Below, piece after piece: positions 11,835 to 51,730 of a stretch of 64,000 nucleotides of DNA; within the stretch, counting starts at the first letter, position 1, and the number at the start of each line of letters is the position of its first letter. The stretch covers positions 1 through 64,000 of the forward strand of contig CAVQRZ010000034.1 in the NCBI GenBank assembly GCA_963715335.1. The letters are read 5' to 3'. Source of the stretch: an uncultured delta proteobacterium. Its GTDB lineage: Bacteria > Desulfobacterota > Desulfuromonadia > Desulfuromonadales > BM103. The notes beneath the pieces were generated by a model that had not been told where the DNA came from, did no database searches, and was given only the letters and a program-made list of their open reading frames with translations. Both the position numbers and the translations under genes were made by a program.

Positions 11835-12630
11835 CTGGCTGCTGGCAAGGTTCAGCAGGAATTCATGATAGCGAGGGCAACAGATGGTTAATCTGTTGCC
11901 CTTAATTTCTTCTTTAAATTCTTAAAAGAAAAACCGGCGGATCGCCTCTCACCTATGCCTTACTTTATTTGTTTACAAGGAAAAGAGTTTTACGTTGATT
12001 CATTTCGCACGATGCAATTAAAGGCCACCGGGTCAAGAAAACAGTACCGTGAGGCCCCCTGCAACGGGCCGGCTCCCGTACACAGAAGCCATTAGAAACC
12101 ACGGCAATCCTGCGGACGTCTATGCCCAGCGCAGCGCAGGCCCTTTTCTGCTGACTCTTTTGGGCCAGCAAAAGAGTCAGGCGCCGTCGGGGGGCGCCAC
12201 CCCCGGGTTTTGCTTTTGCTTGCTTTATGTATTTAAACATGATTCAAAAGATCGAGAACCAGAACCGGCGGGTCGCGTCCCGCCGGACGCCATACTTTTG
12301 TCCGGCAACAAAAGTATGCAAAAGTGCCTTCTCCTAGCGGAGGGCATAGACGTTCGCGCAGGATCTAAGGCGTTCAGGAACAACGCAGGAGACGAGCCGG
12401 CCCGTTACAGGGGGCCTCGCCATAATGATGTCAATATGGGGTGGCAGGATCACACTGATGAGACAACTTGCGCCCGCAGGGACGGAACTTAAAACCCTTC
12501 TTCTCTGAAGTCCAGTGGACTATCAAAAGGGCAACAGATTAACCATCTGTTGCCCTTAACTTTAAATGAATTCCACGTACAATGTAAAAAAACAAAACCC
12601 GCATCACGTGCGGGCTTTGTTAAGAATCTG
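11835..12630. repeat. Rearranged copy (E) of the hairpin-rich intergenic repeat (MITE/REPIN-like)
   Basis: Leader ctggctgctggcaag; GGGCAACAGAT..ATCTGTTGCCC palindromes at 11874-11902 and 12527-12557; both arm modules present back-to-back at about 12120-12350. Confidence 0.85.
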
Positions 12631-12660
12631 AAACGGCCGGGCAAGCCGCCCGGCCGTTTC
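12631..12660 (-). terminator. Rho-independent terminator of topA
   Basis: AAACGGCCGGGC-aagcc-GCCCGGCCGTTT, about 20 nt past the topA stop. Confidence 0.75.
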
Positions 12661-12682
12661 GTTCGTATATGTCGAGCCTGCT

Positions 12683-15022
12683 TCAGGCTTTCTTCTTGAC
12701 GGTTTTCTTGGCCGTAGCTTTCTTGGCGGGCGCCTTCTGCTCCGGCTCGACCAGGGTCACCTGGTAGTCGCATCCCTCCTCGGGGCATTTCTGGACGGTT
12801 CCGTAACGCTTGGTGACCTTCACTACGGTCAGCGGGAAGGCACATTTCGGACAGGGCTCCTCTTGCGGTTCGTCCCAGAGGGCGTATTTGCATTTCGGGT
12901 AACGATTGCAGGAGTAGAAGATTTTGCCGTAACGGCTCTTCTTCTCCATGATTTCACCTTCTTTGCAGGACGGGCAGCCGATGTCGAGTGATTTCGGTTT
13001 AATCAGGGGTTGATTGTTTTTGCACTCGGGATAGGCAGAACAGGCAAGGTACTTGCCGTAGCGTCCTTCCTTGAACTGCATCAGCGCACCGCACTTCTCG
13101 CATTTCTCATCGGAGAGGACCGGCTCGTCATTGCGTTCGCCGTTGATCGGGCGGGTGTATTTACACTCCGGGTAGCCGTTGCAGGCAATGAAGTAGCCGT
13201 TGCGGCCAAACTTCTTGGAAAGCTGTTCCTGGCACTCCGGGCACTTTTCGTCAAGAGGTTCACCGACGAACCGGACCTCTTTGACCCCCTCGACCTCCTG
13301 TTTGAACGGGACCCAGAACTCTCTCAGGAAAGATTTCCATTCACCTTTGCCCAGAGAGATGGCATCGAGGTCGTCTTCCATGTTGGCGGTGAACTGGTAG
13401 TCGACATACTTGTCGAAACACTGCATCAGGAAGCGGATGACTTCGCGACCGAGATCTTGCGGGTAAAAGACCCGCTTGATCAGCTGCACGTAGTTGCGCT
13501 CTACCAGGGTGTTCATGGTGGCCGCGTAAGTCGATGGTCGGCCGATACCATATTCTTCCAGGGTCTTGACCAGCGAAGCTTCCGTGTAGCGTGGGGGTGG
13601 TTGGGTCGTGTGCTCCTCGCCGATGAGTTCAGCAAAGCTTAAGGCCTCTTGCTCGTTCAGGTTGGGCAGGAGCCCTGCGACCTCTTCGCTCTCGGTGTCC
13701 TGGCCTTCGATATAGACCTTCATGAAGCCGGGGAACCGGACCACCTGACCCGAAGCGCGGAACTGGAACTTTTCTCCGGCGAGGATGTCAATCGTGGTCG
13801 CATCGAGCAGGGCATCGGCCATCTGCGAGGCAATTGTCCGTTCCCAGATCAGTTTGTAAAGCCTTAGTTCATCACGATCGAGCACCGTGTTGAGCTTTTC
13901 CGGGTGGCGTGCCAGACCGGTGGGGCGGATCGCCTCATGAGCCTCCTGGGCATTCTTGGCCTTGCTCTTGTAGACGCGGGGCCTGGCAGGAACGTATTCC
14001 TTGCCGTAGCGTTCATCGATGACCTGCCGGGCCTCATCGATCGCCAGATTGGAGAGGGTGACCGAGTCGGTTCGCATGTAAGTGATCAGGCCAACGGGGC
14101 CCTCGCCTGTGTCGACGCCTTCGTAGAGCCTCTGGGCCAACGACATGGTCTTGCGCGCCGAGAAGCCGAGCTTGCGGTTGGCCTCCTGCTGCAGGGTGCT
14201 GGTGGTAAAGGGGGCGGCCGGACGGCGTTTCTTCTCTGTCCGATTGACTGTCGACACCTGCAGCGGCAGGGGCCTGATTTCCTCGACCAGTTGCTCGGCC
14301 GCCTGCCGATCGGCAATCACCTGATAGGTCGCAGCTTCCAGATGCTTGGCGCTGGCAGCGACCTTCTGGCCGTCGATCGAATGCAGTCGCGCCGCAAACG
14401 TGGCTTTCTCCGTGTTGGCCATGGCGGCTTCGATGGTCCAGTACTCCTGGGCCTTGAACGCTTCGATCTCTGCCTCGCGCTCACAGATCAGCCGCAGGGC
14501 AACCGACTGTACGCGGCCGGCCGAGCGGCTGCCGGGAATCTTGCGCCAGAGGACCGGGGAAAGATTGAACCCGACCAGGTAGTCGAGGATCCGTCTTGCC
14601 TGCTGGGCATCGACCAGTTCCGTTGATATCTTGCGTGGCTTGGCCATGGCTTCGGCAATCGCGGTTTTGGTGATCTCGTGAAACACGACCCTGCTGACCT
14701 TGGGAGAGTCCCCTTTTTCGTCAACCCCGAGGGCTTCCAGCAGGTGCCAGGCAATCGCTTCGCCTTCACGGTCCGGGTCAGTCGCAAGGACCAGCTCGTC
14801 GACGCCCTTGAGGGCCTTCTTCAGAAGGGCCAGCTGTTTTTTGGCTTTTGCCGAGACGATGTACTTGGGGAGGAAATCGTTTTCGACATCGACCGAGCCA
14901 TCCTTGCTCGGCAGGTCGCGAACGTGTCCGTAGGAGGCGAGGACGTGGTAGCCCTTGCCGAGAAATTTTTCGATGGTTTTGGCCTTGGCAGGCGATTCAA
15001 CAATAACCAGGGAATTAGCCAT
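12683..15022 (-). CDS. topA: DNA topoisomerase I
   Basis: IVESPAKAKTI, ATDPDREGE, SAGRVQS, LITYMRTDS, AHEAIRPT, C-terminal C4 zinc ribbons and Lys/Ala tail. Confidence 0.98.
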   Translation of the reverse strand: MANSLVIVESPAKAKTIEKFLGKGYHVLASYGHVRDLPSKDGSVDVENDFLPKYIVSAKAKKQLALLKKALKGVDELVLATDPDREGEAIAWHLLEALGVDEKGDSPKVSRVVFHEITKTAIAEAMAKPRKISTELVDAQQARRILDYLVGFNLSPVLWRKIPGSRSAGRVQSVALRLICEREAEIEAFKAQEYWTIEAAMANTEKATFAARLHSIDGQKVAASAKHLEAATYQVIADRQAAEQLVEEIRPLPLQVSTVNRTEKKRRPAAPFTTSTLQQEANRKLGFSARKTMSLAQRLYEGVDTGEGPVGLITYMRTDSVTLSNLAIDEARQVIDERYGKEYVPARPRVYKSKAKNAQEAHEAIRPTGLARHPEKLNTVLDRDELRLYKLIWERTIASQMADALLDATTIDILAGEKFQFRASGQVVRFPGFMKVYIEGQDTESEEVAGLLPNLNEQEALSFAELIGEEHTTQPPPRYTEASLVKTLEEYGIGRPSTYAATMNTLVERNYVQLIKRVFYPQDLGREVIRFLMQCFDKYVDYQFTANMEDDLDAISLGKGEWKSFLREFWVPFKQEVEGVKEVRFVGEPLDEKCPECQEQLSKKFGRNGYFIACNGYPECKYTRPINGERNDEPVLSDEKCEKCGALMQFKEGRYGKYLACSAYPECKNNQPLIKPKSLDIGCPSCKEGEIMEKKSRYGKIFYSCNRYPKCKYALWDEPQEEPCPKCAFPLTVVKVTKRYGTVQKCPEEGCDYQVTLVEPEQKAPAKKATAKKTVKKKA

Positions 15023-15089
15023 AAGTCCAGTTCAAGCCATTTCGTGAGAAATGAAAAAGGCCGCAGGTTTTCCCGCAGCCTGTTGCACA

Positions 15090-15563
15090 TCAGTTCAGCA
15101 ACCGCGGCCAGTCATCTTCCAGCAGGCAGTCGTATTCGCGGCGCCATTCATTGTGAGAGTTGGCAAACATTGCCAGAACCGTAATCGTTTTGATCTCTTT
15201 TAGAGAGACTTCGTCGTCCGCAACCTGCAGGGCCTTGGAGATGACCTCTTCCTGTACTTCGGCGTCGAGTATGCCCATGCCCCGCAGACGAGTCAGGAAC
15301 CCGCGGGCTTCGCCGGAGAGAATTCGGCTTTCCTCGGCGGAGAAGACCCTGTGGCTGGCAGGCGGATTGCCCAGCTTAATGTCGCTTCCGGCGGGAGAAC
15401 AGATGGTCTGGCTCTCCATCCAGCAGAAGGCGGCGTCAATCTCTTCAGCCTCGAAACCGACGGCGAGCAACTCCTCAACGAGATCACTTTCTGTCATCAA
15501 ATCCTGATCGTCGAGGAAGTATTGAGCGATGAAACTGACAATCGCCAGGACTCGTTCTCTCAA
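15090..15563 (-). CDS. smg: Smg / DUF494 family protein
   Basis: Lies between dprA and topA; GFEAEEIDAAFCW, RVFSAEE, EARGFL. Confidence 0.85.
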   Translation of the reverse strand: MRERVLAIVSFIAQYFLDDQDLMTESDLVEELLAVGFEAEEIDAAFCWMESQTICSPAGSDIKLGNPPASHRVFSAEESRILSGEARGFLTRLRGMGILDAEVQEEVISKALQVADDEVSLKEIKTITVLAMFANSHNEWRREYDCLLEDDWPRLLN

Positions 15564-15587
15564 GAAGTCTCCGTTGGTCCGTTAGGA

Positions 15588-16679
15588 TTAAAGCGCCCGG
15601 CGACTGCGGACGTACCGTCCGCCGGGCAACTTTTCTGCGTACCCTTGCAGTTCTAGGTGCAGTAAAATAACGGAAAGCTCCATAGGTGTCAACCCACTTT
15701 CCATGGCGAGTTCATCGCTGTGGCGGGGGGTTAGGTCGAGAGCGCCCAGAACCCTTCTGGCGGGTTCTGGCAGATCAACGCCGCCGCTTGCCAAGTTGGT
15801 ATGCCTCGTGCTGTGAATCGCCGACAGACCGAGGACCTCGAGGATCTCTGCCGCCTCCGTGACCGGATGGGCGCCCTGCTTGATCAGGCGGTTCGGACCG
15901 TAGCTGGTCTTGCGGTCGACACTACCGGGGACCGCCATGACTTCACGCCCCTGTTCGAGGGCGAATTCAGCGGTAATTAAGGAGCCGCTGTTACGGCAGG
16001 CTTCGACCACCAGGGTCCCCAGGCTGAGCGCGCTAATAATGCGGTTGCGCCCGGGAAAGTGTCCTGGCAGGGGTTCGCTGCCGGGGGGGTATTCGGACAA
16101 CAGCGCCCCATTGTCGATGATTTGCTTGTACAGCCCGGCATTCTCCGGTGGGTAGATGCGATCGATCCCGCAGCCGAGGACGGCTACGGTTTTACCCCCC
16201 TCTTCGAGGGCGCCACGGTGCGCCGCGGAGTCTATGCCGCGGGCCATGCCGCTGACAATAACGATGCCGGCCGCAGCCATTTCCCCGGCCAGTTTTTTCG
16301 TGAACATCCTGCCAAAGTCGGTCGGATGACGGGTCCCGACGATGGCGACGGCCGGTTCAGTCGGCAGTTCACCACAACAGTAGAGAAGCGCTGGTGGGTC
16401 GTCTATCTGTCTGAGCCTTTGCGGGTAGTCTGCGTCCCAGATAGTCAGAAGTCGACCGTTCAGCTCGTCCAGTCGCTCGCAGGCCATCTGGATTTTGCGG
16501 TCTGTCGCTGCCGGGATTCCCTGTGTCAGGCCGTTACGCACCCCGGCCAACTGCCAGCCAGGTCCGGCGCTGTCAATGGCTTTTTCTGGGGTTTTGAAGT
16601 GTTCGATCAGGCGCATCAGGCCGACGCGGCCAAGGCCCGGTGTAAGCTGCAGGCGCAACCATGGCGACAGGTCTTGCAT
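15588..16679 (-). CDS. dprA: DNA-processing protein DprA
   Basis: AIVGTR, IVSGMARGIDSAAH, FPGRNRIIS, SGSLITA. Confidence 0.97.
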   Translation of the reverse strand: MQDLSPWLRLQLTPGLGRVGLMRLIEHFKTPEKAIDSAGPGWQLAGVRNGLTQGIPAATDRKIQMACERLDELNGRLLTIWDADYPQRLRQIDDPPALLYCCGELPTEPAVAIVGTRHPTDFGRMFTKKLAGEMAAAGIVIVSGMARGIDSAAHRGALEEGGKTVAVLGCGIDRIYPPENAGLYKQIIDNGALLSEYPPGSEPLPGHFPGRNRIISALSLGTLVVEACRNSGSLITAEFALEQGREVMAVPGSVDRKTSYGPNRLIKQGAHPVTEAAEILEVLGLSAIHSTRHTNLASGGVDLPEPARRVLGALDLTPRHSDELAMESGLTPMELSVILLHLELQGYAEKLPGGRYVRSRRAL

Positions 16680-16712
16680 AGGGTCCCCCCATAAATAATG
16701 TGTTCATTGCAT

Positions 16713-16743
16713 AAAAAGGGATGGGCCGATAACAGCCCATCCC
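16713..16743 (-). terminator. Terminator after the LysM gene
   Basis: GGGATGGGC/GCCCATCCC stem followed by a U-tract on the minus strand. Confidence 0.7.
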
Positions 16744-16778
16744 GAAAAAAATCAAAGGTTCGGGAAGCCTCCCGGAGT

Positions 16779-17798
16779 CTACCTGGTTTTTGTCCTGATC
16801 TGGTCGCCGCGGTAGATCGGCAGGTTGGTCGTACGGGTGATCAACGCTTCGGCGAACCCCCTGCGTACCTCCAGAACAATGGCGTCGCCGAGATCGATAT
16901 CCGGCAGGACCAGCACCTTGTCCTTGTCAACCACATCGGTCGCTTCACGTTTGCGGTAGATATCCAGCTCGTGACCAACCAGCAGGCCGCTTTCTTCTCC
17001 CACGTCGATGAGGATGACTTCCCACTGGCCCATGGCAAGGTTGCCGACGTCATTGGCGAGGATGTAGCCCTCGAGCACATGGTCTGCGAACAGGCGCTGA
17101 ACCCGGCTGGGGATCGCTTTGTAGGGGCGCAGTTTTGAGCCCCTCTCGATTTCCCGCATGGCATGGGTAATGGTCGCTACGGCAACGGTCGGAGTGACTT
17201 TTGTAACCTCGACGGTGCCAAGCTGGATGATCTGGTAACCAAGAATTGCATCTTCTCTCTGGTGACCCCACTTGCCCTCGGCAAGAGGATGAATGATTGC
17301 CCGCCCCGTTTCGATTATTTCATAGATGTCGCCGGGCCTGGTCGCAGAGAGGTCATTCATTTCGAGGAAAACCGTGTCTCCGGTGGTGACCATCAGGCGA
17401 TTGTCGACGGTGTCGACCAAAGTCCCCAGGGTCTGCACCTCTTCGTCGCTGATGAAGCTCTGGGCTCCGCCGAAAGTGGGGATCAGCAGGATTTCATCGG
17501 CAGTCATATATGCGGCACCGATTGCACCGTTGCCTTCGCCGACCGGGATGATCTCGATGCGCCCGTCGTAGATGCGCAGCTTCTGGCCCGGATAGATCAG
17601 GTGCGGATTACCGATCACCGGGTTGTTGGACCAGAGGTTTGGCCAATAGTACGGGTCCTTTATGAAGCGCTGGGAGATGTCCCACAGAGTGTCGCCCTGC
17701 TTGACCGTGTAGATGATCGGTTCTTCCTTGGCGATGGCAGCGCCAGGCCAGATCATGAAGAGTAAACAGGCAGTCAGAATAGTGCGTTTGAGATTCAT
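16779..17798 (-). CDS. LysM peptidoglycan-binding protein
   Basis: Signal peptide, YTVKQGDTLWDIS...WPNLW...NPHLIYPGQ; conserved position upstream of dprA. Confidence 0.92.
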   Translation of the reverse strand: MNLKRTILTACLLFMIWPGAAIAKEEPIIYTVKQGDTLWDISQRFIKDPYYWPNLWSNNPVIGNPHLIYPGQKLRIYDGRIEIIPVGEGNGAIGAAYMTADEILLIPTFGGAQSFISDEEVQTLGTLVDTVDNRLMVTTGDTVFLEMNDLSATRPGDIYEIIETGRAIIHPLAEGKWGHQREDAILGYQIIQLGTVEVTKVTPTVAVATITHAMREIERGSKLRPYKAIPSRVQRLFADHVLEGYILANDVGNLAMGQWEVILIDVGEESGLLVGHELDIYRKREATDVVDKDKVLVLPDIDLGDAIVLEVRRGFAEALITRTTNLPIYRGDQIRTKTR

Positions 17799-17821
17799 GT
17801 CTCCCCCTTGATGGCAACCGG

Positions 17822-18517
17822 TTAGGGTATCACCAGTTCCTGGGCCTTTTGGGTTGCTGGACTTTTCGGATAACGTTGGTTCAGTGTGTCAATCGCCTGG
17901 CGGGCTGCATCCGTTGCCCCCAGTTGCAGCTGGGCGATGGCAATTTTGTAGAGGGCTTCCGGGCTTTTCGGTGCGCCCGAATACTCGTTGATGACGCGCT
18001 CGAACTCCCTGATTGCCATGGGGTATTGCTGTTGATTGAAATAGCAGTCCGCAAGCCAGAACTGTGCGTTGCTAGCATAGCTGTTGTTCGGGAAACGCCT
18101 CAGGAAGGCCTCAAAGCCGTGTAGTGCGGATTGGTAGCGGCCAGAGGCATAGTCGCCGAATGCCTGCAGGTAAACTTCGGTTGGCGAGCCATCACCTTGC
18201 GCCTGCGCGGCAGTGGTTTCGGCAGTGCGCGGTAGCGCTGCGGTCGGGTAAGCCCCTTCCGCCGTCAATGGGCCCCGCATAAGCTGATTGATTTGCTGGG
18301 CCTGTGCCTGCTGTTGGTTCTGCAGCTCGGCCAGTTGCCGTGAGACACTCTGCAGCTCTTGCTCCTGTCTGTCTAGCGTCTCCTGCAGGCGGCTCATGTC
18401 ATGGGGAAGGTTGCCGGATTGCATGCCTCTCGGCGGCGGAGCGCACGAAGCCAGCAGGCTGAGCAGGCCCACAACTGCCAGATATCGGTATGCCATATGT
18501 CTGTCGGGGATAGTCAT
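17822..18517 (-). CDS. cpoB: Tol-Pal associated CpoB/YbgF lipoprotein (coiled coil + TPR)
   Basis: LLASC lipobox, coiled coil, NAQFWLADCYF, KSPEALYKIA. Confidence 0.85.
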   Translation of the reverse strand: MTIPDRHMAYRYLAVVGLLSLLASCAPPPRGMQSGNLPHDMSRLQETLDRQEQELQSVSRQLAELQNQQQAQAQQINQLMRGPLTAEGAYPTAALPRTAETTAAQAQGDGSPTEVYLQAFGDYASGRYQSALHGFEAFLRRFPNNSYASNAQFWLADCYFNQQQYPMAIREFERVINEYSGAPKSPEALYKIAIAQLQLGATDAARQAIDTLNQRYPKSPATQKAQELVIP

Positions 18518-18682
18518 GTCGTCAAGTTACAGTAGTATCCAGAATTGAAATTTCCTAAAAATTATAGGCTTTTTCGTTACTTGTCAAGCATCATGGCTGG
18601 TCGCACGATAATCTGGCCTTGCATGAAATATGCCTCGTTGTGATAGAGTAAACGGCGATATCAGAACACACAAGGTTACCGA

Positions 18683-19900: not shown

Positions 19901-19907
19901 TCGCTGG

Positions 19908-20555: not shown

Positions 20556-20670
20556 CTCTTCATTCTAACCTGTTCTGACGTCCTGTGCAGGCCGGGAAAG
20601 GGTTGTTTCCAAGCCATGTTCACGGCATACTGTGACGGTTTGCGGAGTTCTTTTCTGACATGAGGCGATA

Positions 20671-22947: not shown

Positions 22948-22951
22948 CCGG

Positions 22952-29291: not shown

Positions 29292-29862
29292 CAGGCTGCT
29301 GACAAAGTTCAATTAGAGTTCATGATGGAAAGGGCAACAGATGGTTCATCTGTTGCCCTTTTTCATTGTATCCTGGAATTTAGAGACAAAAGCAAAATCC
29401 GGGGGTCTCGCCCCCCGACGGCGCCATACTCTTTTACTGGCCTAAAAGAGTATGCAGAAAAGGGCCTGCGCTGCGCTGGGCATGTCTGGCTCGGCAGGGC
29501 GGCAACCTCAATCCAGATCGTTTTAGACGATCAGGAGCCTGCGCTTCCCCCGCAGGAGCCGAGGCTCTTGAGAGCCTCTCCTGCTGTGGAGGCTTGCGTC
29601 GGTAGGAGTTGTTTTGGCTTTTCCCTTGTAAATCACACGGCAAGGTCAGGCCCTTTGACACAGGGCCGGATCCCCATCAGTAAAGGTTGTTGAAGTCACA
29701 GACATCCGGCAAAGGAGATGCCCTCCGCAAGGAGAAGGCATTTTTGCATACTTTTGTTGCCGGACAAAAGTATGGCGTCGGGCGGGACGCGACCCGCCGG
29801 TTCTGTGTTTAAGCATTTTAAGAATAAAGAACAAGGACAACAGTTTAACCCTCTGTTGCCCC
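29292..29862 (+). repeat. Copy A of the hairpin-rich intergenic repeat
   Basis: Leader caggctgctgacaaa, palindromes at 29329-29361 and 29835-29860, near-identical core shared with copies B, C and D. Confidence 0.92.
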
Positions 29863-38460: not shown

Positions 38461-39025
38461 CAAGCGCTGACAACGTTCAGCTTTGATGTTTAGAAGGGCA
38501 ACAGATGGTTCATCTGTTGCCCTTTGCTGTTGTTCTCTGGAAAACAAAGACAAAAACAGAACCCGGGGGTTGCGCCCCCCGACTGCGCCTTACTCTTTTG
38601 CTGGCCCAAAAGAGTAAGCAGAAAAAGGCCTGCGCTGCGCTGGGCATGTCTGGCTCGGAGTGGCGGCGACCTCAATCCGGATCGTTCTAAACGATCAAAA
38701 GCCTACGCTTCCCCCGCAGGAGCCGAGGCTCTTGAGAGCCTCTCCTGCTGTGGAGGCTTGCGTCGGTAGAGGTTGTTTTGGCTTTTCCCATGTAAATCAC
38801 ACGGCAAGGTCAGGCCCTTTGACACAGGGCCGGATCCCCATCACAGCAGGTTCTTGAAGTCACAGACATCCGGCAAAGGAGATGCCCTCCGCAAGGAGAA
38901 GGCACTTTTGCATACTTTTGTTGCCGGACAAAAGTATGGCGTCGGGCGGGACGCGACCCGCCGGTTTTGCTTTTAAGTATTTCAAGAAAAGGAAAAAGGG
39001 CAACAGATTAACCATCTGTTGCCTA
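38461..39025 (+). repeat. Copy B of the hairpin-rich intergenic repeat
   Basis: Palindromes at 38494-38524 and 38999-39023; core matches copies A and D. Confidence 0.92.
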
Positions 39026-39045
39026 AATTTCACAAAAACTCCTAG

Positions 39046-39087
39046 AAAAAACTAAAGGGCCAGCTGATGCCGGCCCTTTAGTTTTTA
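39046..39087. terminator. Bidirectional terminator
   Basis: AAAAACTAAAGGGCC...GGCCCTTTAGTTTTT. Confidence 0.8.
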
Positions 39088-39805: not shown

Positions 39806-39838
39806 GGTTTCTTGCTGCTCCAGGAGGGGCGCTTTGTC

Positions 39839-42781: not shown

Positions 42782-42925
42782 GGTGAAGACTCCTTACATC
42801 AGATATTGGTTCAAGGCGAATTTAATAATTGGGGGTGCGGGTACGCACTGCGGATCAAGTTGCAAGATATAAACGATCAGACCGGAAAAGACAAGAGGCG
42901 CGAAACAATCTGTCGGTCTGGTGCG

Positions 42926-44167: not shown

Positions 44168-44177
44168 CCGCTCTGCC

Positions 44178-44909
44178 TTACAGGAGTACGGCTGTGGCCG
44201 CACCGATGATGCCGGCGTTATTGCGCAGGGCGGCAGGTTTGATTTCAGCCTTGATGTGCAGGTAGGGGAAGAATTCCTCGTGGTGCTGACTGATTTCTCC
44301 ACCGATGATAAACAGGTCAGGCCAGAAAAGACTCTCGAGGAGATTCAGGTAATCGTCGAAGCGTTCTGCCCACTCCTGGTAGGAAAGGTCCAATGCCGTG
44401 CGGATCGCGGCCGAAGCGAACTGTTCGGCGGCCTTGCCATGAAGTTGCAGGTGCCCGAGTTCAGTACTGGGGAACAGGGTTTGGTCATGGAATAGTGCCG
44501 TACCGAGTCCGGTGCCGGCGGTCACGACAATGGCTGTTCCGCTAAAGTCCCTGCCGGCGCCGAAGCGCATTTCCGCCAGCCCGGCGGCGTCAGCGTCATT
44601 GATGACCCTGAACTCCAGTCCGGTCCTTGCCGAAAACAGTTCAACAATATCAGTGCCGATCCAGCCAGGGTCAATGTTCGCGGCTGTGCAGGCTATGCCG
44701 TTGCGAACGACAGACGGCAGCCCGCAACCAACCGGCCCCGTCCAGCTGAAATGTTCAATGGCCTGAAAAACGACCTCAGCAACGGCTTCCGGTGTCGCAG
44801 GTTTTGGTGTCTCGACGCGCAGGCGCGCTGCCGTGAGAGTGCCACTGGCAGGATTGACGGGAGCAGCTTTCACGGCTGATCCACCGATGTCGATCCCGAG
44901 GATATCCAT
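44178..44909 (-). CDS. ppgK: ROK family polyphosphate glucokinase
   Basis: GIDIGGS, TAANID..W, INDADAAGLAE, GTGLGTA, TELGH, NNAGIIGAA. Confidence 0.88.
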   Translation of the reverse strand: MDILGIDIGGSAVKAAPVNPASGTLTAARLRVETPKPATPEAVAEVVFQAIEHFSWTGPVGCGLPSVVRNGIACTAANIDPGWIGTDIVELFSARTGLEFRVINDADAAGLAEMRFGAGRDFSGTAIVVTAGTGLGTALFHDQTLFPSTELGHLQLHGKAAEQFASAAIRTALDLSYQEWAERFDDYLNLLESLFWPDLFIIGGEISQHHEEFFPYLHIKAEIKPAALRNNAGIIGAATAVLL

Positions 44910-44913
44910 CTGT

Positions 44914-46209
44914 CTAGTGGGCCGCGAAGCCGAACCATTCGGGGAAAATCACCAGGATGCAAAGAACGAATGTCTGCAAGGTGATGAACGGAATGACGCC
45001 GTAGTAGATGTCCGTGGTTCGCACCTCGGGCGGGGCGACCCCCTTCAGGTAGAACAGGCTGAAGCCAAATGGCGGGGTAAGAAATGAAGTCTGCAGGTTC
45101 ATGGCAACCAGGATCGCATACCAGATCGGGTTGATGCCAAGGTTGGCGGCGATCGGCGCGAGGATCGGCACAACGATGTAGGATATTTCAACGAAATCAA
45201 TGAAGAAGCCAAGGACCATGATAATCAGCATCGAGAGGATCAGGAAGCCCCATTTCTCGCCCGGCAGGCCCGTCATGAAGTCTTCAACAATCCAGTCTCC
45301 GCCAGTGTAGGTGAAGACCATCGAGAACGCTGTGGCGCCGATCAGGATGGCAAAGACCATGGCGCTAATCTTGACGGTTTCCAGCGAGCTATCCCAGATC
45401 ATTCTGAATGAGAACTGGCGATAGAGGATTGCCAGGGCGATTGCGCCGATGCCGCCAACCGATGAGGATTCGGTTGGGGTAGCAACTCCGGCCAGGATCG
45501 AACCCAGCACCAGGACAATCAGCACCAGTGGTGGGACGATGGCCTTGAGAGCCTGGAAAATCTGGTGTTTTTTAGATCCTGTCAGCTCTTCCAGGCGGAT
45601 CGGTGGGGCCAGGTCCTTCTTTATTATGGTGATGATGACGATATAGGCGACATAGAACAGAACCAGTGAAAGCCCGGGCCAGAGCGCCGCTTTGAACAGG
45701 TCGCCGACCGGTTCCTGGAAAACATCCCCGAGGATAATCAGGACGATTGACGGCGGGATGATCTGTCCCAGGGTCCCGGCGGCACAGATCGCACCTGAGG
45801 CGAGTCGCTTGTCGTAGTTGTACTTGAGCATGACCGGCAGCGAGATGACCCCCATGGCCACCACGCTGGCTCCGACTACGCCGGTGGATGCCGCCAGGAG
45901 GGCGCCGACCAGGACCGTCGAGATGGCGATGCCGCCCCGGATTTCACCGAACAGGAAGCCCATCGATTCGAGCAGACGTTCGGCGAGGTTCGATTTCTGC
46001 AGCACGATCCCCATGAAGATAAAGAGCGGGATGGCCATCAGAATGGTGTTGTTCATGATCGACCAGATGCGATGGGGCATCAGGGCGAAAATCTGGGTTC
46101 CCTCTGCGAACAGGCCGAAGAAGACGGCTACGCCGCCGAAAGTAAAGGCCACCGGAAAACCGGCCAGAAGCATGACCAGTGCGACGCCGAACATGATAAG
46201 ACCGATCAT
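44914..46209 (-). CDS. dctM: TRAP transporter large permease
   Basis: AIPLFIFMG, GTLGQIIPPS, GVATPTE, SFLTPPFG. Confidence 0.95.
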   Translation of the reverse strand: MIGLIMFGVALVMLLAGFPVAFTFGGVAVFFGLFAEGTQIFALMPHRIWSIMNNTILMAIPLFIFMGIVLQKSNLAERLLESMGFLFGEIRGGIAISTVLVGALLAASTGVVGASVVAMGVISLPVMLKYNYDKRLASGAICAAGTLGQIIPPSIVLIILGDVFQEPVGDLFKAALWPGLSLVLFYVAYIVIITIIKKDLAPPIRLEELTGSKKHQIFQALKAIVPPLVLIVLVLGSILAGVATPTESSSVGGIGAIALAILYRQFSFRMIWDSSLETVKISAMVFAILIGATAFSMVFTYTGGDWIVEDFMTGLPGEKWGFLILSMLIIMVLGFFIDFVEISYIVVPILAPIAANLGINPIWYAILVAMNLQTSFLTPPFGFSLFYLKGVAPPEVRTTDIYYGVIPFITLQTFVLCILVIFPEWFGFAAH

Positions 46210-46283
46210 ACTTTAATTACCTTTATGCGAGCGACCAGAGGTCGTAGGAAGCAAATTCATGATGGCAACCGTCAATCCGAGAA

Positions 46284-46823
46284 TCACAGGATGTCATCTT
46301 CAAGGTGATGCACAGGGGGGGCTTCGAGGCCTTTGAAAACGCTGATGTTGTGAATGACGAAACCGATCGCCGAAACGATCAGGAACACAAACGATGTCGG
46401 GATCACCGCCTTGATCAGCCAGCGCTGGGTCAGACCTCCCGGATCGCCGCTGATCTCGGCCGAAGTATACGCCTCGTGCACATACCAGATCGAGCCCTCT
46501 GTGATCAGAACACACAGGGGGATCAGAAAAAGCAGAGTGCCGCCGATGTTGACGATGGCTTTCCAGCGCGGGGAGAAATTGTCGTAGAGGATATCGACCC
46601 GGACATGGCCGTCCTCTTTCAGGGCAAATGCCATGCCGAACAGGAAAACCACTGCGAACAGGTGCCATTCCATCTCCTGCATGGCGATCGAACCGGTATT
46701 GAAGAAGTAGCGCATGATGGAGTCATAGAAAACATTGACCAGCATGACGATGTTGAGAAAACCGGCGATCCAACCCATCACGTTGGAGAATCGGTCAAAA
46801 AACTTTTCCAGTTTTAGCAGCAT
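46284..46823 (-). CDS. dctQ: TRAP transporter small permease
   Basis: EMEWHLF, GHVRVDILY, four TM segments. Confidence 0.93.
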   Translation of the reverse strand: MLLKLEKFFDRFSNVMGWIAGFLNIVMLVNVFYDSIMRYFFNTGSIAMQEMEWHLFAVVFLFGMAFALKEDGHVRVDILYDNFSPRWKAIVNIGGTLLFLIPLCVLITEGSIWYVHEAYTSAEISGDPGGLTQRWLIKAVIPTSFVFLIVSAIGFVIHNISVFKGLEAPPVHHLEDDIL

Positions 46824-46850
46824 AGGGGGCCTTGCATTGCCATAGATAGT

Positions 46851-46872
46851 GCTCCCGGCCGAAGCCGGGAGC
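46851..46872 (-). terminator. Hairpin between dctP and dctQ
   Basis: GCTCCCGGC-cgaa-GCCGGGAGC perfect 9-bp stem. Confidence 0.6.
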
Positions 46873-46883
46873 GAAGGTGTAAA

Positions 46884-48003
46884 TTATTCGAGGTTGTCCT
46901 TCAGGTAGGCGTAATCAGAGATCGCTGTCCACTTGCGGGCCATCTTCATGTAGGCCCTCTGGGACTCCAGGATCTCCTTGAAGGTTGCGTCACTGGCCGC
47001 GGCCTCCTGCCAGGAGTTCGTCGTTCGCCTTTTTCATGGCGGCTATGATTTTGGGGGAGAAGGTGCGGATCTTGACCTCCGGGTATTCCTTCTCGATCGA
47101 CGCCCAGTTGACGGCGCTCTCATGGTAGGAGCGTGCGTACATGTCATAGGCGGCATACTGCATGGCGATGGTCAGGATCTCCTGCAGGTGCTTCGGCAGT
47201 GCGTCGAACTTGGCCTTGTTGACCATGAACTGCAGTTCGGTAGCAGGCTCATGCCAGCCAGTGTAGTAGTAGGGGGCGATTTTCTGGAAGCCCATGTTCA
47301 GGTCAAGAGACGGGCCAACCCATTCCAGGGCATCGATGGTCCCGCGGTCAAGCGCCGTGTAGAGCTCGCCGGGCGGAATGTTGGTGACAACAACGCCGAG
47401 CTTGGAGAGGACTTCGCCGGCGAATCCGGGGATGCGCATCTTGAGGCCCTTGAAGTCATCCAGGGTGTTGATCTCTTTACGGAACCAGCCGCCCATCTGA
47501 TTGCTGGTGTTGCCGCCCGGGAAAGAGTAGACGCCATGCTTTTCATAGACTTTCTTCATCAGCTCCATGCCGCCGCCATAGTAGAACCAGGCATACTGCT
47601 CCGGGGCGATCATGCCGAAGGGCATGGTGGTGAAGAACATGGTGCTGACATCCTTGCCTTTCCAGTAGTAGGAGGCCGAGTGGCCCATTTCGTACTGGCC
47701 GGCATTGACCATGTCAAGGATGCCGAATGCCGCCTTGTGCTTGTTCGCTGAGTCGATGCGGATTTCCATCTCGCCGTTGGACATGGCCTTGACCATGTCG
47801 GCCATCTTGATGACTGCATCACCAAAGATCGGGAAGCCGGTCCCCCAGGTCTGGGCCAGTTTCCAGACGATGACCTCTTTTTCAGCTTGCTTGGCTTCCG
47901 CTTGCGGTGCCTGCTGCTGTTCGCCACAGGCTGTCAGTCCAAGGAACGCTACGAGGACTACCAACCCTGTGAGCAGTTTCAGGAAAGGCTTCAGTTGTTT
48001 CAT
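46884..48003 (-). CDS. dctP: TRAP substrate-binding lipoprotein (TakP-like), +1 frameshift near 47010
   Basis: LTAC lipobox, SYYWKGK, QMGGWFRKEI, KMRIPG, EWVGP; shifted frame gives EAAASDATFKEILESQRAYMKMARKWT...LE*. Confidence 0.92.
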
Positions 48004-48222
48004 CTCTTCCTCCTTGATGTGTAATGTTGCCGTCATTTGTCAGCCCGAAGCAGCTTCAGGCTCCGCCAGAGAAAACCCTCTTCATAAGCCTTAATATTGC
48101 CTGAAAGCAGGCAGATGTCAATCCCCGTACAATAATGTTTTCAGATGGTTGACGCCCTTTATGTGCTTGACGTTTGGGTCGATGATGATAACTTTTACGA
48201 AAACTTTGGCAGGAGGTCCGTG

Positions 48223-49200
48223 ATGAGCAAGGCGATTCGAATCCATAATACAGGCGGTCCCGAGGTGTTGTGCTGGGAAGAAACAGAAACTGCTCCCCCG
48301 GGTGCTGGTGTAGTGCTCCTCAGGCAGACGGCGGTCGGCCTGAACTTTATCGACGTCTATCATCGTACCGGGCTCTATCCCTTGGGAGATTTGCCGGCAA
48401 CGCCCGGGATGGAGGGAGCCGGCGTCGTGGTCGCGCTTGGCGAAGGGGTGGATGGCCTCGCGGTGGGTGACCGCGTTGCCTATGCTGGGCTGCCTCCGGG
48501 CGCCTATGCAGAGGAGCGTCTGATCCCCGCCCATCGCCTGGTTAAACTGCCCGATGGTATCAGCGACCGGCAGGCAGCCGGCATGATGCTGCAGGGCATG
48601 ACCGTACAATACCTGTTGCGCAGCACTTTTCACGTCAAGCCGGGAGACACGATCCTTTTTCACGCGGCGGCAGGAGGGGTCGGTCTGATTGCCTGCCAAT
48701 GGGCCAAGCACCTTGGCGCGACCGTCATCGGTACGGTCGGCAGCCCGGAGAAAGCTGAATTGGCCAAGGCCCACGGCTGCGACTACCCGTTGCTGTACCG
48801 TGACGAGGACTGGGTCGCTCGCGTTCGTGAAATCACCGACGGAGAAGGAGTCCCGGTGGTTTACGATTCCATTGGCAAAGACACTTTTATGAAATCTCTC
48901 GATTGCCTGCGGCCCCTTGGGCTAATGGTCAGTTTCGGCCAGGCTTCGGGACCGATCGGAGCTTTTGATGCAGGGGTGCTGGCGGCCAAGGGCTCGCTTT
49001 TCCTGACCCGTCCGACCTTGATGACCTATACGGCCAACCGGGAAGATCTCCTGGCCAGTGCCATGGAACTGTTTGATGTCGTCATGTCGGGAGCCGTGAA
49101 GATCGAGATCAAACAGACCTATCCCCTGGCGGAAGCTGCCCGGGCGCACCGGGACCTTGAGGCCCGCAGGACGACCGGATCCACCGTGCTGATACCGTAA
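48223..49200 (+). CDS. qor: NADPH:quinone oxidoreductase (zeta-crystallin type)
   Basis: GLNFIDVYHRTGLY, HAAAGGVG, VVYDSIG, GSLFLTRP. Confidence 0.93.
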   Translation: MSKAIRIHNTGGPEVLCWEETETAPPGAGVVLLRQTAVGLNFIDVYHRTGLYPLGDLPATPGMEGAGVVVALGEGVDGLAVGDRVAYAGLPPGAYAEERLIPAHRLVKLPDGISDRQAAGMMLQGMTVQYLLRSTFHVKPGDTILFHAAAGGVGLIACQWAKHLGATVIGTVGSPEKAELAKAHGCDYPLLYRDEDWVARVREITDGEGVPVVYDSIGKDTFMKSLDCLRPLGLMVSFGQASGPIGAFDAGVLAAKGSLFLTRPTLMTYTANREDLLASAMELFDVVMSGAVKIEIKQTYPLAEAARAHRDLEARRTTGSTVLIP

Positions 49201-49267
49201 CTGCAGAGGCGCGAAGGGGGAAGTGGGAAAAACAGGAAAGGGGCCCGAAAGTTGATTTCGGGCGTCT

Positions 49268-49864
49268 CAGGTTGATGACAAAGTTTAGTCAGAATTCATG
49301 ATAGGGAGGGCAACAGAGGGTTAATCTGTTGCCCTCTGTCATTTATTCTTGAAAGCTTAAAAGCAAAACCGGCGGGTCGCGTCCCGCCGACGCGCCATAC
49401 CTTTTGTCCGGCAACAAAAGTATGCAAAAGTGCCTTCTCCTTGCGGAGGGCATCTCCTCTGCCGGATGTCTGTGAGTTCAAAAACCTGCTGTGATGGGGA
49501 TCCGGCCCTGTGTCAAAGGGCCTGACCTTTCCGTGTGATTTACATGGGAAAAGCCAAAACAATCCCTACCGACGCAAGCCTCCACAGCAGGAGAGGCTCT
49601 CAAGAGCCTCGGTTCCTGCGGGGGAAGCGTAGGCTCCTGATCGGTTAGAAACATCCGGATTGAGGTCGCCGCCATTCCGCGCCAGGAGATGCCCAGCGCA
49701 GCGCAGGCCTTTTTCTGCTTACTCTTTTGTGGCCAGCAAAAGAGTAAGGCGCAGTCGGGGGGCGCGACCCCCGGTTTTGCTTTTTGCTTTTATCTTTGAA
49801 TTGCAAAGACAATAGCAAAGTGCAACAGATGAACCATCTGTTGCACTAAGAATCATAGATTTCC
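49268..49864 (-). repeat. Copy C of the intergenic repeat, interior inverted
   Basis: Leader caggttgatgacaaa on the left as in other copies; 49306-49847 is the reverse complement of the A/B/D interior. Confidence 0.92.
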
Positions 49865-49869
49865 ATCTC

Positions 49870-50829
49870 TCAGACTTTTGACTTGTGGTAGGTGAAGTAA
49901 ATTGTCCCGCCGGCCCCTTCGACCCCTTCAGCCCAGATCTGGCCGCCGAGTCTGTGCACAATCCTTTGCGCGCCTGCAAGCTTGATCGTGTCTTTTGGCA
50001 GGTTGTCATCCTGCGGGCTTTCGCGGAAGGCGTCGAAGAGTCGTTTCGCCTGGCCCTCGCTGAAGCCTGTGCCATTATCACGGACAAACAGCACTTTCTG
50101 TTCACCTCTGTGGTACATGCCCAATTCGATCCGCCCCTTGCGGCCGGCCGGGATAAAGTCCATGGCATTGCGGAACAGCTGGTGAATAACCAGTCGTATC
50201 ATCTGGCGGTCAGAAACAATCGTGATCCAGGGCCGGATCGTGAACTCAAGCTCCCGCTCCGGATGTTTGTGTTCCAGTTCTTCCTTGATCTCGATAGCAA
50301 GGGTGTCGATTTTGATCCGTTCCCGTCGTGGTCGACTCACCGGCAGTTCGACGAGCGCCCGGCTTGTCTCCAGCTGCCTGCTCAGCTTCTCGTTGCAGTT
50401 GGCAATCGATTCGAGAAAGAAGAGGGTCTTTTCCTCCAGCTCGTCCTCGCACTGGGCTTTGAGCAGGGCCATGGAGGTGTTGATCTCGGAGGCTGTGTTG
50501 CGCAGATGTTGCAGCATGTCGTGGTCGAAATCTTCAACATCCTTCCTGACCAGATCCAGGTCCTCGTTGGATTGCAGCAGGTTTTTTTCTCTCTGGGCCG
50601 TGTTTGCCAGGTAATGCATGCCAAGGTAGATTGCTGCAAGAATAAAGATGCTGAACAGGAACCGATTCGCCATTTCCTGGTAGGAAGGCGACAGGAGCTG
50701 TTGCGCCACAGTGCCCTTGCCGAACAGCGCGGCACCGAGGATGGCGTCTGCAACAGTGGCGAGCGGAATCAGGGCCAGACCCCACAGGAACAGGCGGAAT
50801 AAAGATTTTTGTGACAGGGTTTTCGGCAA
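49870..50829 (-). CDS. Membrane histidine-kinase-like protein with degenerate G2 box
   Basis: Two TM segments, HDM, QLFRNA, VRDNGTGF, LGGQIWAEG..G.GGTIYFT. Confidence 0.85.
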   Translation of the reverse strand: MPKTLSQKSLFRLFLWGLALIPLATVADAILGAALFGKGTVAQQLLSPSYQEMANRFLFSIFILAAIYLGMHYLANTAQREKNLLQSNEDLDLVRKDVEDFDHDMLQHLRNTASEINTSMALLKAQCEDELEEKTLFFLESIANCNEKLSRQLETSRALVELPVSRPRRERIKIDTLAIEIKEELEHKHPERELEFTIRPWITIVSDRQMIRLVIHQLFRNAMDFIPAGRKGRIELGMYHRGEQKVLFVRDNGTGFSEGQAKRLFDAFRESPQDDNLPKDTIKLAGAQRIVHRLGGQIWAEGVEGAGGTIYFTYHKSKV

Positions 50830-50862
50830 GACGGTGCAGGTCTCCTAAAGTATAGTGGGCAC

Positions 50863-50891
50863 ATTTTAATCACAAACGGCTAATGTCGCAA
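50863..50891 (-). promoter_or_regulatory. Putative sigma70 promoter of the kinase gene
   Basis: TTGCGA-17 nt-TAAAAT on the minus strand. Confidence 0.55.
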
Positions 50892-50920
50892 GAAATTCTT
50901 CCGTGAATCGTGTGGAAGAG

Positions 50921-50956
50921 AAATAAAAAACGGACGCATTGAAAATCGCGTCCGTT
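50921..50956 (-). terminator. Rho-independent terminator with no adjacent CDS
   Basis: AACGGACGC/GCGTCCGTT stem plus a minus-strand U-tract. Confidence 0.65.
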
Positions 50957-51079
50957 GTGTGACTCTTGTTTGCTGGAGAGCTCAGGCCATTTCCCTTCGG
51001 CCCGGTCCGGAATAATTTGCCTGACTGTGTGATGCTTTGAACAGGAAAGCAGTCCGGGGATGGTTGCCCCGGCCTGCTT

Positions 51080-51729
51080 TTGGATGCTGACAAATTTCAG
51101 CCAGACTTCAATGATAGGGAGGTCAACAAATGGTTCATCTGTTGACCTCCTAATTGGAGTTTGGAACTTTAAGTCAAAGCAAACCAGAACCCGGGGGTCG
51201 CGCCCCCCGACGGCGCCATACTCTTTTACTGGCCTAAAAGAGTATGCAGAAAAGGGCCTGCGCTGCGCTGGGCATGTCTGGCTCGGAATGGCGGCGACCT
51301 CAATGCAGAACGTTCTAAACGATCAAGAGGCTACGCTTCCCCCGCAGGAGCCGAGGCTCTTGAGAGCCTCTCCTTTCGTGGAGAGCTGTGCGTCGATAGA
51401 GGTTGTTTTGGCTTTTCCCTGGTAAATCACACGGCAAGGTCAGGCCCTTTGACACAGGGCCGGATCCCCATCACAGCAGGTTTTTGAAGTCACAGACATC
51501 CGGCAAAGGAGATGCCCTCCGCAAGGAGAAGGCACTTTTGCATACTTTTGTTGCCGGACAAAAGTATGGCGTCGGGCGGGACGCGACCCGCCGGTTTTGC
51601 ATTTAAGCTTTTAAGAATAAAGACAGAGTGCAACAGATTAACCCTCTGTTGACCGAGCTTCATAGAAACCGCATCTGCCAGTTAAAAAAAACAAACCCCG
51701 CATCACATGCAGGGTTTGTCAAAAATCTG
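51080..51729 (+). repeat. Copy D of the intergenic repeat (most complete ends)
   Basis: Leader ggatgctgacaaa, palindromes at 51118-51150 and about 51628-51654, tail cccgcatcacatgcagggtttgtcaaaaatctg shared with copy E. Confidence 0.92.
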
Positions 51730-51730
51730 C

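Follow-up and report, generated by a model that had tools for sequence, protein, structure and literature searches.

Nested intergenic repeats in an uncultured Desulfuromonadales bacterium: an outer element with IS1182-type ends and a BIME-like inner cassette

The five repeated blocks in the analyzed window (the whole 64,000-nt stretch at positions 1 to 64,000 of contig CAVQRZ010000034.1, assembly GCA_963715335.1, from an uncultured delta proteobacterium) each consist of two nested gene-free elements, namely an outer ~140-bp MITE and an inner BIME-like cassette. The outer layer is very probably an IS1182-family MITE that inserts at terminator hairpins, and we hold with equally high confidence that the cassette turns over independently of this outer shell. 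The observations concern the identity of the ends, hairpin targets, empty alleles, cassette-free copies of the shell, random cassette direction, lost orthology, and covarying stems. For the whole, we slightly favor a reading in which the MITE shell is moved by an IS1182 transposase and the BIME-like cassette is flipped or replaced, likely by a single-strand enzyme of the HUH/Y1 type. Taken by itself, the proposition that an enzyme reads the arms of the cassette is more tentative and falls a little short of even chances.

Repeat family and organization of the blocks

In the genome of the window (G000), the repeat family has 83 loci that occupy 43.9 kb of 3.30 Mb, which corresponds to 1.3% of the genome and one locus per ~40 kb. 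The sequence-only reading had considered that a density of about one copy per 13 kb might hold genome-wide; the copy number extrapolated in this way is approximately three times too high. A few of the 83 loci are probably allelic duplicates, and the genome has a contamination of 6.9%. The same reading had found no ORF conserved across the copies, and the genome-wide comparison agrees: the commonest ORF has 17 codons and is present in 39 of 55 units, and its ATG is found in just eight of 32 arms collected across the order. A small toxin ORF or toxin-antitoxin pair was ruled out because this start codon is not conserved. Plasmid and phage collections contained no match to the element, and carriage by phages or plasmids was rejected. 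A literature search found no paper describing the repeat family, with the supplements of G. metallireducens covered in part, such that overlap with a family described there is possible.

The five blocks (A–E) sit at the positions proposed earlier from the sequence alone (Table 1), and a scan of the window with an arm model found exactly ten arms, two per copy. The inner units of A–D are 92–96% identical to one another. The proposed order of leader, palindrome P, arm L, core, arm R, and second P describes A, B, and D. Block C carries its inner unit the other way round, with arm R first, and in E the arms point outward and are accompanied by two other cores. The sequences that had been termed leader and tail of the block are real, and they represent the left and right termini of a distinct MITE of ~140 bp, which can also stand by itself with a single P. 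The relatives compared were G001–G004 and G006, with G002 as the main congener comparison. The hairpin at site E is present once only in G001, G004, and G006. At site C, arm L comes first in G002 and arm R comes first in the genome of the window.

Table 1. Coordinates of the repeat features in the window.
Block	Feature	Position	Strand	Remarks
E	Left copy of duplicated terminator-like hairpin	11805–11834		Between topA and trmFO; 31-nt repeat
E	MITE left end (leader)	11835–11874	+	First 15 nt are IS1182-type IRL
E	Palindrome P	11875–11901		11-5-11
E	Inner unit, outward-facing type	11902–12528		Order: decayed arm, core x, arm L (12122–12212, −), AT spacer, arm R (12260–12347, +), core y; G002 has the standard type at the same site
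E	Second P	12529–12555		Exact reverse complement of first P
E	MITE right end	12556–12630	+	Subterminal hairpin and IRR (12616–12630)
E	Right copy of duplicated hairpin	12631–12660		
A	MITE left end and P (29332–29358)	29292–29358	+	After acnA
A	Cassette	29359–29834	+	Arm L 29393–29483 (+), core, arm R 29718–29805 (−)
A	Second P	29835–29861		MITE right end lost
B	Decayed MITE left end and P (38496–38522)	38461–38522	+	
B	Cassette	38523–38997	+	Arm L 38557–38647 (+), core, arm R 38882–38969 (−)
B	Second P (38998–39024) and right-end remnant	38998–39053		Ahead of terminator hairpin
C	MITE left end and P (49308–49334)	49268–49334	+	
C	Cassette, opposite direction	49335–49819	−	Arm R 49364–49453 (+), core, arm L 49689–49779 (−)
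C	Second P	49820–49846		Right end and ~0.9 kb found in G002 are missing here
D	Left copy of terminator hairpin, inverted form	51045–51079		Behind hisG; single hairpin in G002
D	MITE left end and P (51121–51147)	51080–51147	+	
D	Cassette	51148–51627	+	Arm L 51185–51275 (+), ~235-nt core, arm R 51512–51599 (−)
D	Second P (51628–51654), subterminal hairpin, and IRR (51715–51729)	51628–51729	+	
D	Right copy of terminator hairpin	51730–51761		Element absent at this site in G002, G003, and G004

Ends and hairpin targets of the outer element

The leader corresponds to the IRL of one IS1182 clade and the tail to its IRR plus subterminal hairpin, as matched across 83 distinct loci of this clade; the earlier guess of an IS1182 transposase was therefore a good one. 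The L035 ORF of this clade passes NF033551 with 487 bits (cut-off 270). The absence of a transposase from the window extends to the whole of G000 in that no intact transposase of the clade was found there, and congener G003 has a fragment of such an element at a contig end (L052). Across the order, transposases of the clade were detected at E < 1e-100 in just six of 233 genomes. Bare copies of the MITE are 136–141 bp long, and the MITE occurs alone with one P at C23:86488 and C30:60414 of G000 as well as in G001 at site B. MITE ends are lacking at 31 of the 83 loci of the repeat family. The idea of a non-autonomous element mobilized in trans is thus supported for the outer shell by the IS1182 ends and the empty alleles described below, and does not apply to the whole block because the cassette turns over separately. 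A reading of the block as a single MITE, in which P serves as terminal repeat or plain target duplication, was rejected, since the two P face opposite ways in 23 of 26 loci and the shell is also found bare. An IS5-type element at C6 that begins with similar letters was also rejected, given that it has only a 3–4-bp AT duplication.

The flanks of the IS1182-clade elements have a stem of at least 7 bp at their start in 113 of 141 cases (0.6% in shuffles). Among the 59 IS loci with both flanks, 11 have a direct duplication of an 18–31-bp hairpin, and the other 48 are flanked by two different hairpins, which we take as joins across copies in the assemblies. For MITE copies with both ends, the likeness of the two flanks exceeds the 99th percentile of the null in 17 of 34. 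About half of the MITE target copies look inverted (18 vs. 13), unlike those at IS insertions. Inverted duplication by the IS1182 enzyme itself was rejected, as all 11 matched IS footprints are direct (two of these are perfect palindromes and uninformative). By crude gene calls, 38 of 75 loci lie between convergent ORFs, compared with 241 of 1408 gaps (p = 6e-12).

Empty alleles, which the earlier reading had named as a check on mobility, were found in relatives for sites E, B, and D. Site B is empty in G002 and G004, has a minimal MITE in G001, and carries other cargo in G006. The extra 4.8-kb DNA at site B in G002 resembles a transporter block without arms. For the 36 copies of G002 with syntenic flanks, the corresponding sites in G000 comprise eight without the element, one with a bare MITE, and 27 that are filled; a bare single-P allele at a shared site is found at L184. 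These patterns are consistent with a process in which a visiting IS1182 transposase, present only now and then, would move the MITE in trans and insert it at terminator hairpins, duplicating them. Shell and cassette would usually jump together, and template switching after insertion may account for the inverted target copies.

Structure of the inner cassette

The inner cassette of ~420 bases comprises a pair of ~92-nt three-hairpin arms and a ~235-nt linker, and lies mostly between two inverted 27-bp P. The linker is 233–239 nt long in 46 of 57 cases. Arm L is paired with arm R in 50 of 56 head-to-head pairs and in 13 of 14 tail-to-tail joints, and long P-free arm arrays are present in another bacterial family (L323). 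In an alignment of 32 hand-picked arms, 93% of the cells are paired (~50% in slid controls), with 72 double changes compared with 20.5 after shuffling. The h1 and h2 stems have 71 double and two single changes, with few wobble intermediates. In the outward-to-inward strand, G-U accounts for all variation of the third hairpin and of a possible loop-loop pairing. The arm fold is kept in 13 of 17 families and, more weakly, beyond the order, and 186 of the 419 columns are near-invariant, including many outside perfect stems. The covarying arm structure fits a structured ncRNA and a single-stranded DNA structure equally well.

Cassette turnover at shared sites

Among the 22 sites shared with congener G002, the cassette is flipped in 11. 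In a separate count, the leader was adjoined by arm L 16 times and by arm R 15 times. The identity of a cassette to its orthologue (0.866) is close to that of random pairs (0.863; p = 0.13). The 30 nt flanking P on the outside ranked the orthologue first in 15 of 26 cases and those on the inside in three of 26, and linkage among 51 copies decays within ~25 nt. Same-direction sites keep spacer orthology in nine of 22 comparisons, indicating that turnover is patchy; at flipped sites it is kept weakly (six of 22, p = 0.07). None of the sequencing runs had more than 0.24 of the words, all in contigs, and the joints found there were mixtures of copies that pointed to no defined site of excision or inversion. 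Shared variants were too few to place a crossover inside P, with only five shared changes in 25 comparisons.

Candidate enzymes and mechanisms

The search turned up no enzyme for the cassette. For Y1/RAYT enzymes, none of the 61 best-scoring loci from 49 genomes had a convincing arm (one weak match, E = 0.02), none of 31 Y1 loci had a convincing P beside it, and a survey of 80 loci found no Y1 gene at 1.5 kb or less from P. Y1 matches were absent in G001–G003 and only sub-threshold in G004, yet G002 holds many turned-over cassettes. The GTAG tag of classical REPs is absent from the arm alignment. At several P-less sites, the slot by the spacer holds a degenerate hairpin that by eye resembles those flanking RAYT-like genes here; a strict search over 20 cases found no such RAYT-type hairpin at 120 nt or less from an arm, so this link depends on visual reading of degenerate copies. 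The pair of RAYT-like genes in G000 was rejected as the mover, as they are flanked by hairpins other than P and the arms. An autonomous cassette with a gene between the arms was also rejected, since the six arm pairs located 1.4–2.3 kb apart enclose what appear by eye to be ordinary host ORFs. Other rejected movers are IS110 (absent from G000; the one beside a G002 cassette is inserted into arm L), reverse transcriptases (none of five congeners), and resolvases (two of five congeners, not including G000). The only candidate enzymes common to the five congeners are two XerC/D-sized tyrosine recombinases.

With an arm-reading enzyme, the arms would direct cutting in the AT spacers or P, after which the cassette could be excised, re-inserted, and extended in tandem, in line with proposals for the BIMEs of E. 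coli, and gene conversion would mix the cores. A bolder and unlikely extension takes the 92-nt arm to be the end recognized by an enzyme outside the families searched. The arm would then belong to an undescribed class of single-stranded elements that spread by themselves and predate the order; such an element would shuttle whole cassettes either way among dozens of fixed chromosomal docks and, in this genus, would have come to new terminators aboard an IS1182 mini-transposon.

A close competitor of the arm-reading enzyme is inversion by the host combined with gene conversion, although as a full account we judge it somewhat unlikely. The same IS1182 shell would carry as its passenger a cassette that at present has no enzyme of its own; the cassette would be flipped when the host switches templates or recombines inverted repeats (P-P or arm-arm), lost when slippage joins the two P, and homogenized by RecA gene conversion among the ~70 copies. 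Consistent with this, the congeners share no candidate beyond the two tyrosine recombinases, the variation is mosaic with short linkage, P is lacking at two of the 11 flipped sites (L203 and L221), and none of the 36 mapped sites is a rearrangement breakpoint. Inverted target hairpins, P-centered fold-backs (L108 and L149), and the few one-sided stem changes also fit template switching, which the available portion of PMC8604942 describes as homogenizing arms and inverting spacers. However, a passive cassette leaves unexplained the loci without MITE ends, the P-free arrays in other families, the near-invariant columns, and the fold that is kept in most families (weakly beyond the order). Moreover, plain inversion would carry the spacers along, whereas flipped sites keep spacer orthology only weakly.

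It is very unlikely that arms and core together form a structured RNA encoded in many copies, or a device for termination and mRNA stability, that is under selection and whose DNA turnover is a side effect of being repeated. Such a role would suit the fold of the unit (z = −9.3 and −5.6 for the two strands), the hairpin plus T-run that ends each arm in outward reading, the fixed linker length, the restriction of third-hairpin variation to G-U, and a nominal excess of G-T over A-C types (22 to 12). However, the multicopy ncRNA proposed earlier is disfavored by the Rfam 15 search over the copies, in which no family reached the gathering score and all 12 E-value matches (in C and D) were far below it, and by h1 and h2 stems that change almost only by double substitutions. 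Relative to genes, the arms are covered no more deeply in two RNA-library assemblies than in two DNA runs, a weak comparison that is limited to contigs, and promoter-like matches number one against 0.5 expected. The random direction at shared sites and the many sites that are empty in relatives also argue against this explanation.

Still less likely, P may be the site of a site-specific recombinase (11-bp arms with a 5-bp directional spacer) at which cassettes are inverted, excised, and exchanged. Where a site has P, the exchange point falls there, the two P are mostly inverted, a bare single-P allele exists (L184), and P has an invariant stem with a loop that varies by genus and is restricted to one family (24 of 233 genomes). 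Against this, cassettes are also flipped at sites lacking P, and within a cassette the fifth base of the loop is often not the same in the two P (C in 19 of 28 on the L side, A in 19 of 29 on the R side; p = 0.017). No rearrangement joins different loci, no recombinase gene was found beside P, P had no match in the viral collection, and the distribution of reverse transcriptases, resolvases, and IS110 given above also speaks against it.

Comparison with known systems

The IS1182 clade shares with IS1272/TnSha1 of staphylococci the transposase family (NF033551), terminator-hairpin targets without sequence consensus, and insertion in either orientation at one target. According to the available portion of PMC4923244, IS1272/TnSha1 removes a portion of the hairpin and leaves no duplication, unlike the clade described here, which duplicates the whole 18–31-bp hairpin. 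The copies in the window further differ from IS1272 in that they are non-autonomous and carry a second element. In the part of the bioRxiv preprint 10.1101/2025.07.22.666184 that was available, no IS1182 footprint data were found. Chunjie of Geobacter uraniireducens is also a MITE in the same order, and the descriptions available in PMC10969869 and PMC3184786 give it a length of 178–235 bp, a 21-bp TIR, and a 9-bp direct repeat, unlike the MITE here. The repeat family is an abundant, uncatalogued intergenic repeat tied to a named transposase family, whose clade recognizes terminators by shape and copies the whole hairpin. With such copying, both neighboring genes would keep a terminator, and hairpin-duplicating insertion is a structure-directed and probably harmless way of adding DNA.

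In Pelobacter carbinolicus, the multicopy sequences Pcar_R1001–R1028 and R1107/08/11 end, by eye, in a clear homologue of arm L, and some are arranged tail to tail or in tandem (PMC3543383). Their core differs from that of the cassette, and the portion of the article available presents them without function or mechanism; P and leader motifs were not found in six of its supplement files. The intergenic mosaic elements of neisseriae (dRS3/RS), as portrayed in the available part of PMC9778887, resemble the cassette in having interchangeable units between short palindromes with a variable center. This likeness is one of design, with no sequence relation expected, and dRS3 is a phage integration site whereas P had no match in the viral collection.

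As far as the available portions of PMC3333891, PMC3116915, and PMC5581495 describe them, the REP/BIME repeats of E. coli and the REPINs of Pseudomonas are similar to the cassette in having two inverse-oriented repeat types, a long linker that is conserved, flanking spacers that vary, tandem arrays, and differences between genomes at a locus. In comparison, the arms here have ~92 nt and three hairpins, whereas REPs have 30–40 nt and one; the cassette also has no GTAG tag and a ~235-nt linker, and no RAYT gene was found with such arms at its flanks. The cassette poses the question familiar from REPs and BIMEs, namely what spreads and reshuffles the repeats, in a larger and more structured form, for which the direction at shared sites provides a read-out.

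Genomic abundance and distribution of the repeat family

The five repeat blocks of the window (E, A, B, C and D) exist and lie where the sequence-only reading had placed them. In the source genome (G000), iterated BLAST recovered 83 loci of this family, which occupy 43.9 kb of 3.30 Mb. The window is therefore about three times denser than the genome average, and the extrapolation of its density to the whole genome does not hold. Some of the 83 loci are probably allelic duplicates, as a flank is common to one locus on contig C13 and one on C6, and likewise to loci on C15 and C28. In the C13/C6 pair, which has an identical flanking terminator, the MITE is oppositely oriented on the two contigs and the cargo differs; the pair probably represents two strains within the assembly. 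DNA matches to the repeat were found in 34 of the 41 genomes sampled (G000 counted) and in 13 of 17 families. Outside the genus, these matches are mostly arms of ~90 nt, and the nameable loci belong mostly to Desulfuromonadales or unclassified Deltaproteobacteria. An Rfam search over the repeat copies returned no family. Elsewhere in the window, Rfam identified a cspA thermoregulator (Table).

The blocks had been described as copies of a single unit. The unit is real, but it comprises two elements, an outer shell and an inner cassette, because bare shells (leader, one P palindrome and tail; 136-141 bp) occur at two G000 loci and at site B in the relative G001, and because one site common to G000 and its congener G002 (L184) holds a bare shell in the former and the same shell with P-cassette-P in the latter. 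Among the 83 loci, 24 have both outer ends, 22 the leader only, 6 the tail only, and 31 neither.

Table. Locations of features discussed in the text
Feature	Locus	Coordinates	Score or model
Repeat blocks E, A, B, C, D	window	11835..51729	
cspA thermoregulator (Rfam)	window	56673-57072 (+)	87.4 bits (gathering score 78)
Pair with identical flanking terminator	G000	C13:9640; C6:117778	
RAYT-like Y1 gene	L001	G000 C10:40073	76.7 bits (cut-off 80)
RAYT-like Y1 gene	L002	G000 C9:68347	81.5 bits (cut-off 80)
IS110-family element	L225 (G002:C20)	290-1620	NF033542
G000 counterpart of L225	G000	C2:80193	
IS1182-clade fragment	L052	G003:C55:11250-11581	
P-centred fold-back	L108	1-230	
P-centred fold-back	L149	1380-1620	
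4.8-kb block adjoining site B	L022	G002:C29:9500-14300	
Second unit family	L122, L135, L148, L154, L164; L356-L374; G000	C9:144009-144300 (G000)	
P behind the same two genes	L101, L122, L154, L157; L095, L145, L152, L161, L012		

The outer shell and its targets

The outer layer is very probably a MITE belonging to an IS1182 clade whose insertion duplicates terminator hairpins. A search of 44 genomes of the family for IS1182 yielded elements with ends matching the shell, and the protein of one member (L035) scores 487 bits against the NF033551 cut-off of 270; for the shell, the earlier suggestion of IS1182 was thus correct. Across 83 distinct clade loci, taken from both the order and metagenomes, ~19 nt of the left end agree with the leader, and the right end (a subterminal hairpin and a T-rich run) matches the tail. 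A stem of ≥7 bp opens 113 of 141 clade flanks, compared to 0.6% in shuffles. Among the 59 loci having both flanks, a hairpin of 18-31 bp is directly duplicated in 11; the remaining 48 have two different hairpins and are taken as assembly joins across copies. The footprint of the shell is the same, with a 31-nt hairpin on either side of site E in G000 that is single in G001, G004, and G006. Empty sites, which had been proposed as a check, were found for E, for B (in G002 and G004), and for D (in G002-G004). Of the best 41 G002 copies by BLAST, 36 have syntenic flanks, and at these sites G000 has 27 filled, 8 without the element, and one bare shell. Based on crude ORF calls, 38 of 75 loci lie between convergent ORFs (vs. 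241 of 1408 gaps).

No transposase of this clade is present in G000, and one was detected at E<1e-100 in 6 of 233 genomes of the order; the congener G003 has a clade fragment at a contig end (L052). The shell would likely be mobilised in trans by an IS1182-clade transposase. The L052 fragment sits in a hairpin that, at site A of G002 (L017), is part of another short repeat, and such intergenic spots gather nested insertions. A 4.8-kb block, which we take to resemble an ABC transporter for compatible solutes, adjoins site B in G002; G000 and G004 lack it.

Among 34 old shell copies, the two target copies look inverted relative to each other in 18 and direct in 13. Template switching after insertion probably produced the inverted copies, and long P-centred fold-back palindromes at two loci, in which one flank is recopied inversely across P, point the same way. 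These fold-backs are either real template-switch products or assembly artefacts.

Anatomy of the inner cassette

A profile search found 150 arms in G000. Head-to-head pairs combine L with R in 50 of 56 cases, and tail-to-tail joints do so in 13 of 14; the head-to-head gap is 233-239 nt in 46 of 57 cases. P lies on both sides of 26 of the 49 inward-facing clusters, on one side of 17, and on neither side of 6. In the two-P clusters, P is inverted in 23, direct in two, and unclear in one. P (62 copies in G000) is limited to a single family, being present in 24 of 233 genomes; its stem is invariant, and its loop is characteristic of each genus. The arms are more widespread, forming long P-free arrays in another family, and weak relatives, present singly, were detected in 5 of 120 additional genomes from the phylum.

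In 32 arms that we picked from the order, the arm structure has 93% paired cells (~50% pairing when slid) and 72 double changes (20.5 when shuffled). In hairpins 1 and 2, double changes (71) far outnumber single ones (2). On the strand read from outside to inside, G-U pairs are frequent in hairpin 3, and a possible loop-loop interaction varies solely via G-U. Among 97 distinct units, 186 of 419 columns vary by <2%.

A second unit family (~230-300 nt) has the A/T hairpin of the arm in common and a different core; it lies between P in relatives and as single copies in distant phylum members. In several genomes, P also recurs behind the same two genes, which presumably encode a MetX-like hydrolase and a multi-haem cytochrome; its cargo there varies or is absent.

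Cassette turnover and its possible causes

Cassette turnover is patchy. The cassette is flipped at 11 of 22 sites with a full cassette in both G000 and G002, and it is no more similar to its orthologue than to a random copy (identity 0.866 vs. 0.863; p 0.13); within G000, the value is 0.902. Decayed, site-specific shell sequence is common to both genomes as far as P. By the outer 30 nt, the orthologue was the top-ranked copy in 15 of 26 comparisons, and by the inner 30 nt in 3 of 26; the fifth loop base of P tends to go with arm type (p 0.017). Spacer orthology is kept in 9 of 22 comparisons at same-direction sites and 6 of 22 at flipped sites. No joining of flanks from separate places was seen at any of the 36 mapped sites. 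In G002, arm L of one cassette contains an IS110-family element with short subterminal inverted repeats (L225), which the G000 counterpart lacks; arms can serve as IS110 targets.

Tentatively, we favor movement of the cassette by a single-strand transposase reading the arms over three other explanations. The only positive hint of such an enzyme is that degenerate hairpins resembling those beside local RAYT-like genes occupy the slot of P in several loci, although a strict hairpin pattern recovered none there (0/20). The two RAYT-like Y1 genes of G000 are flanked by their own hairpin family (20 in the genome by the strict pattern). No convincing arm was found beside Y1 genes at 61 Y1 loci, none of 80 P loci had a Y1 gene nearby, and Y1 is absent from G001-G003. 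Reverse transcriptases were not found in five congeners, neither resolvase nor IS110 in G000, and no match in phage, plasmid, and viral collections. The congeners have only two recombinases in common, of a size that we take to be XerC/D.

Alternatively, passive inversion plus gene conversion may reshuffle the cassette. Linkage among 51 G000 copies decays within ~25 nt, and the four-gamete test fails for 62-84% of column pairs. Gene conversion would leave this pattern, to which recurrent mutation also contributes. This explanation is less favored, as is an RNA role. Both strands of the repeat fold well, and the arm-to-gene depth in two RNA libraries is at or below that in two DNA runs, a contig-only comparison that is weak either way. 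The random direction of the element and its frequent absence at individual sites speak against site-specific regulation. A P-specific recombinase exchanging cassettes is likewise less favored, since two flips at sites without P indicate that P is not required.

Comparison with known systems

IS1272 of the IS1182 family is described as targeting hairpins and deleting them without duplication (PMC4923244). Both it and the clade reported here target hairpins; the clade duplicates them, and its footprint is thus a variant. In Pelobacter carbinolicus, members of the Pcar_R1001-28 family, which are listed there without interpretation (PMC3543383, supplement 2), end in a homologue of arm L. The cassette works like a BIME/REPIN, yet neither a short GTAG-tagged single hairpin nor a RAYT gene flanked by arms was found. 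As outlined in PMC3333891, E. coli BIMEs combine two repeat types in inverse orientation with a conserved long linker, variable spacers, and arrays; compared with that outline, the cassette has a matching grammar but is larger and lacks the GTAG tag.
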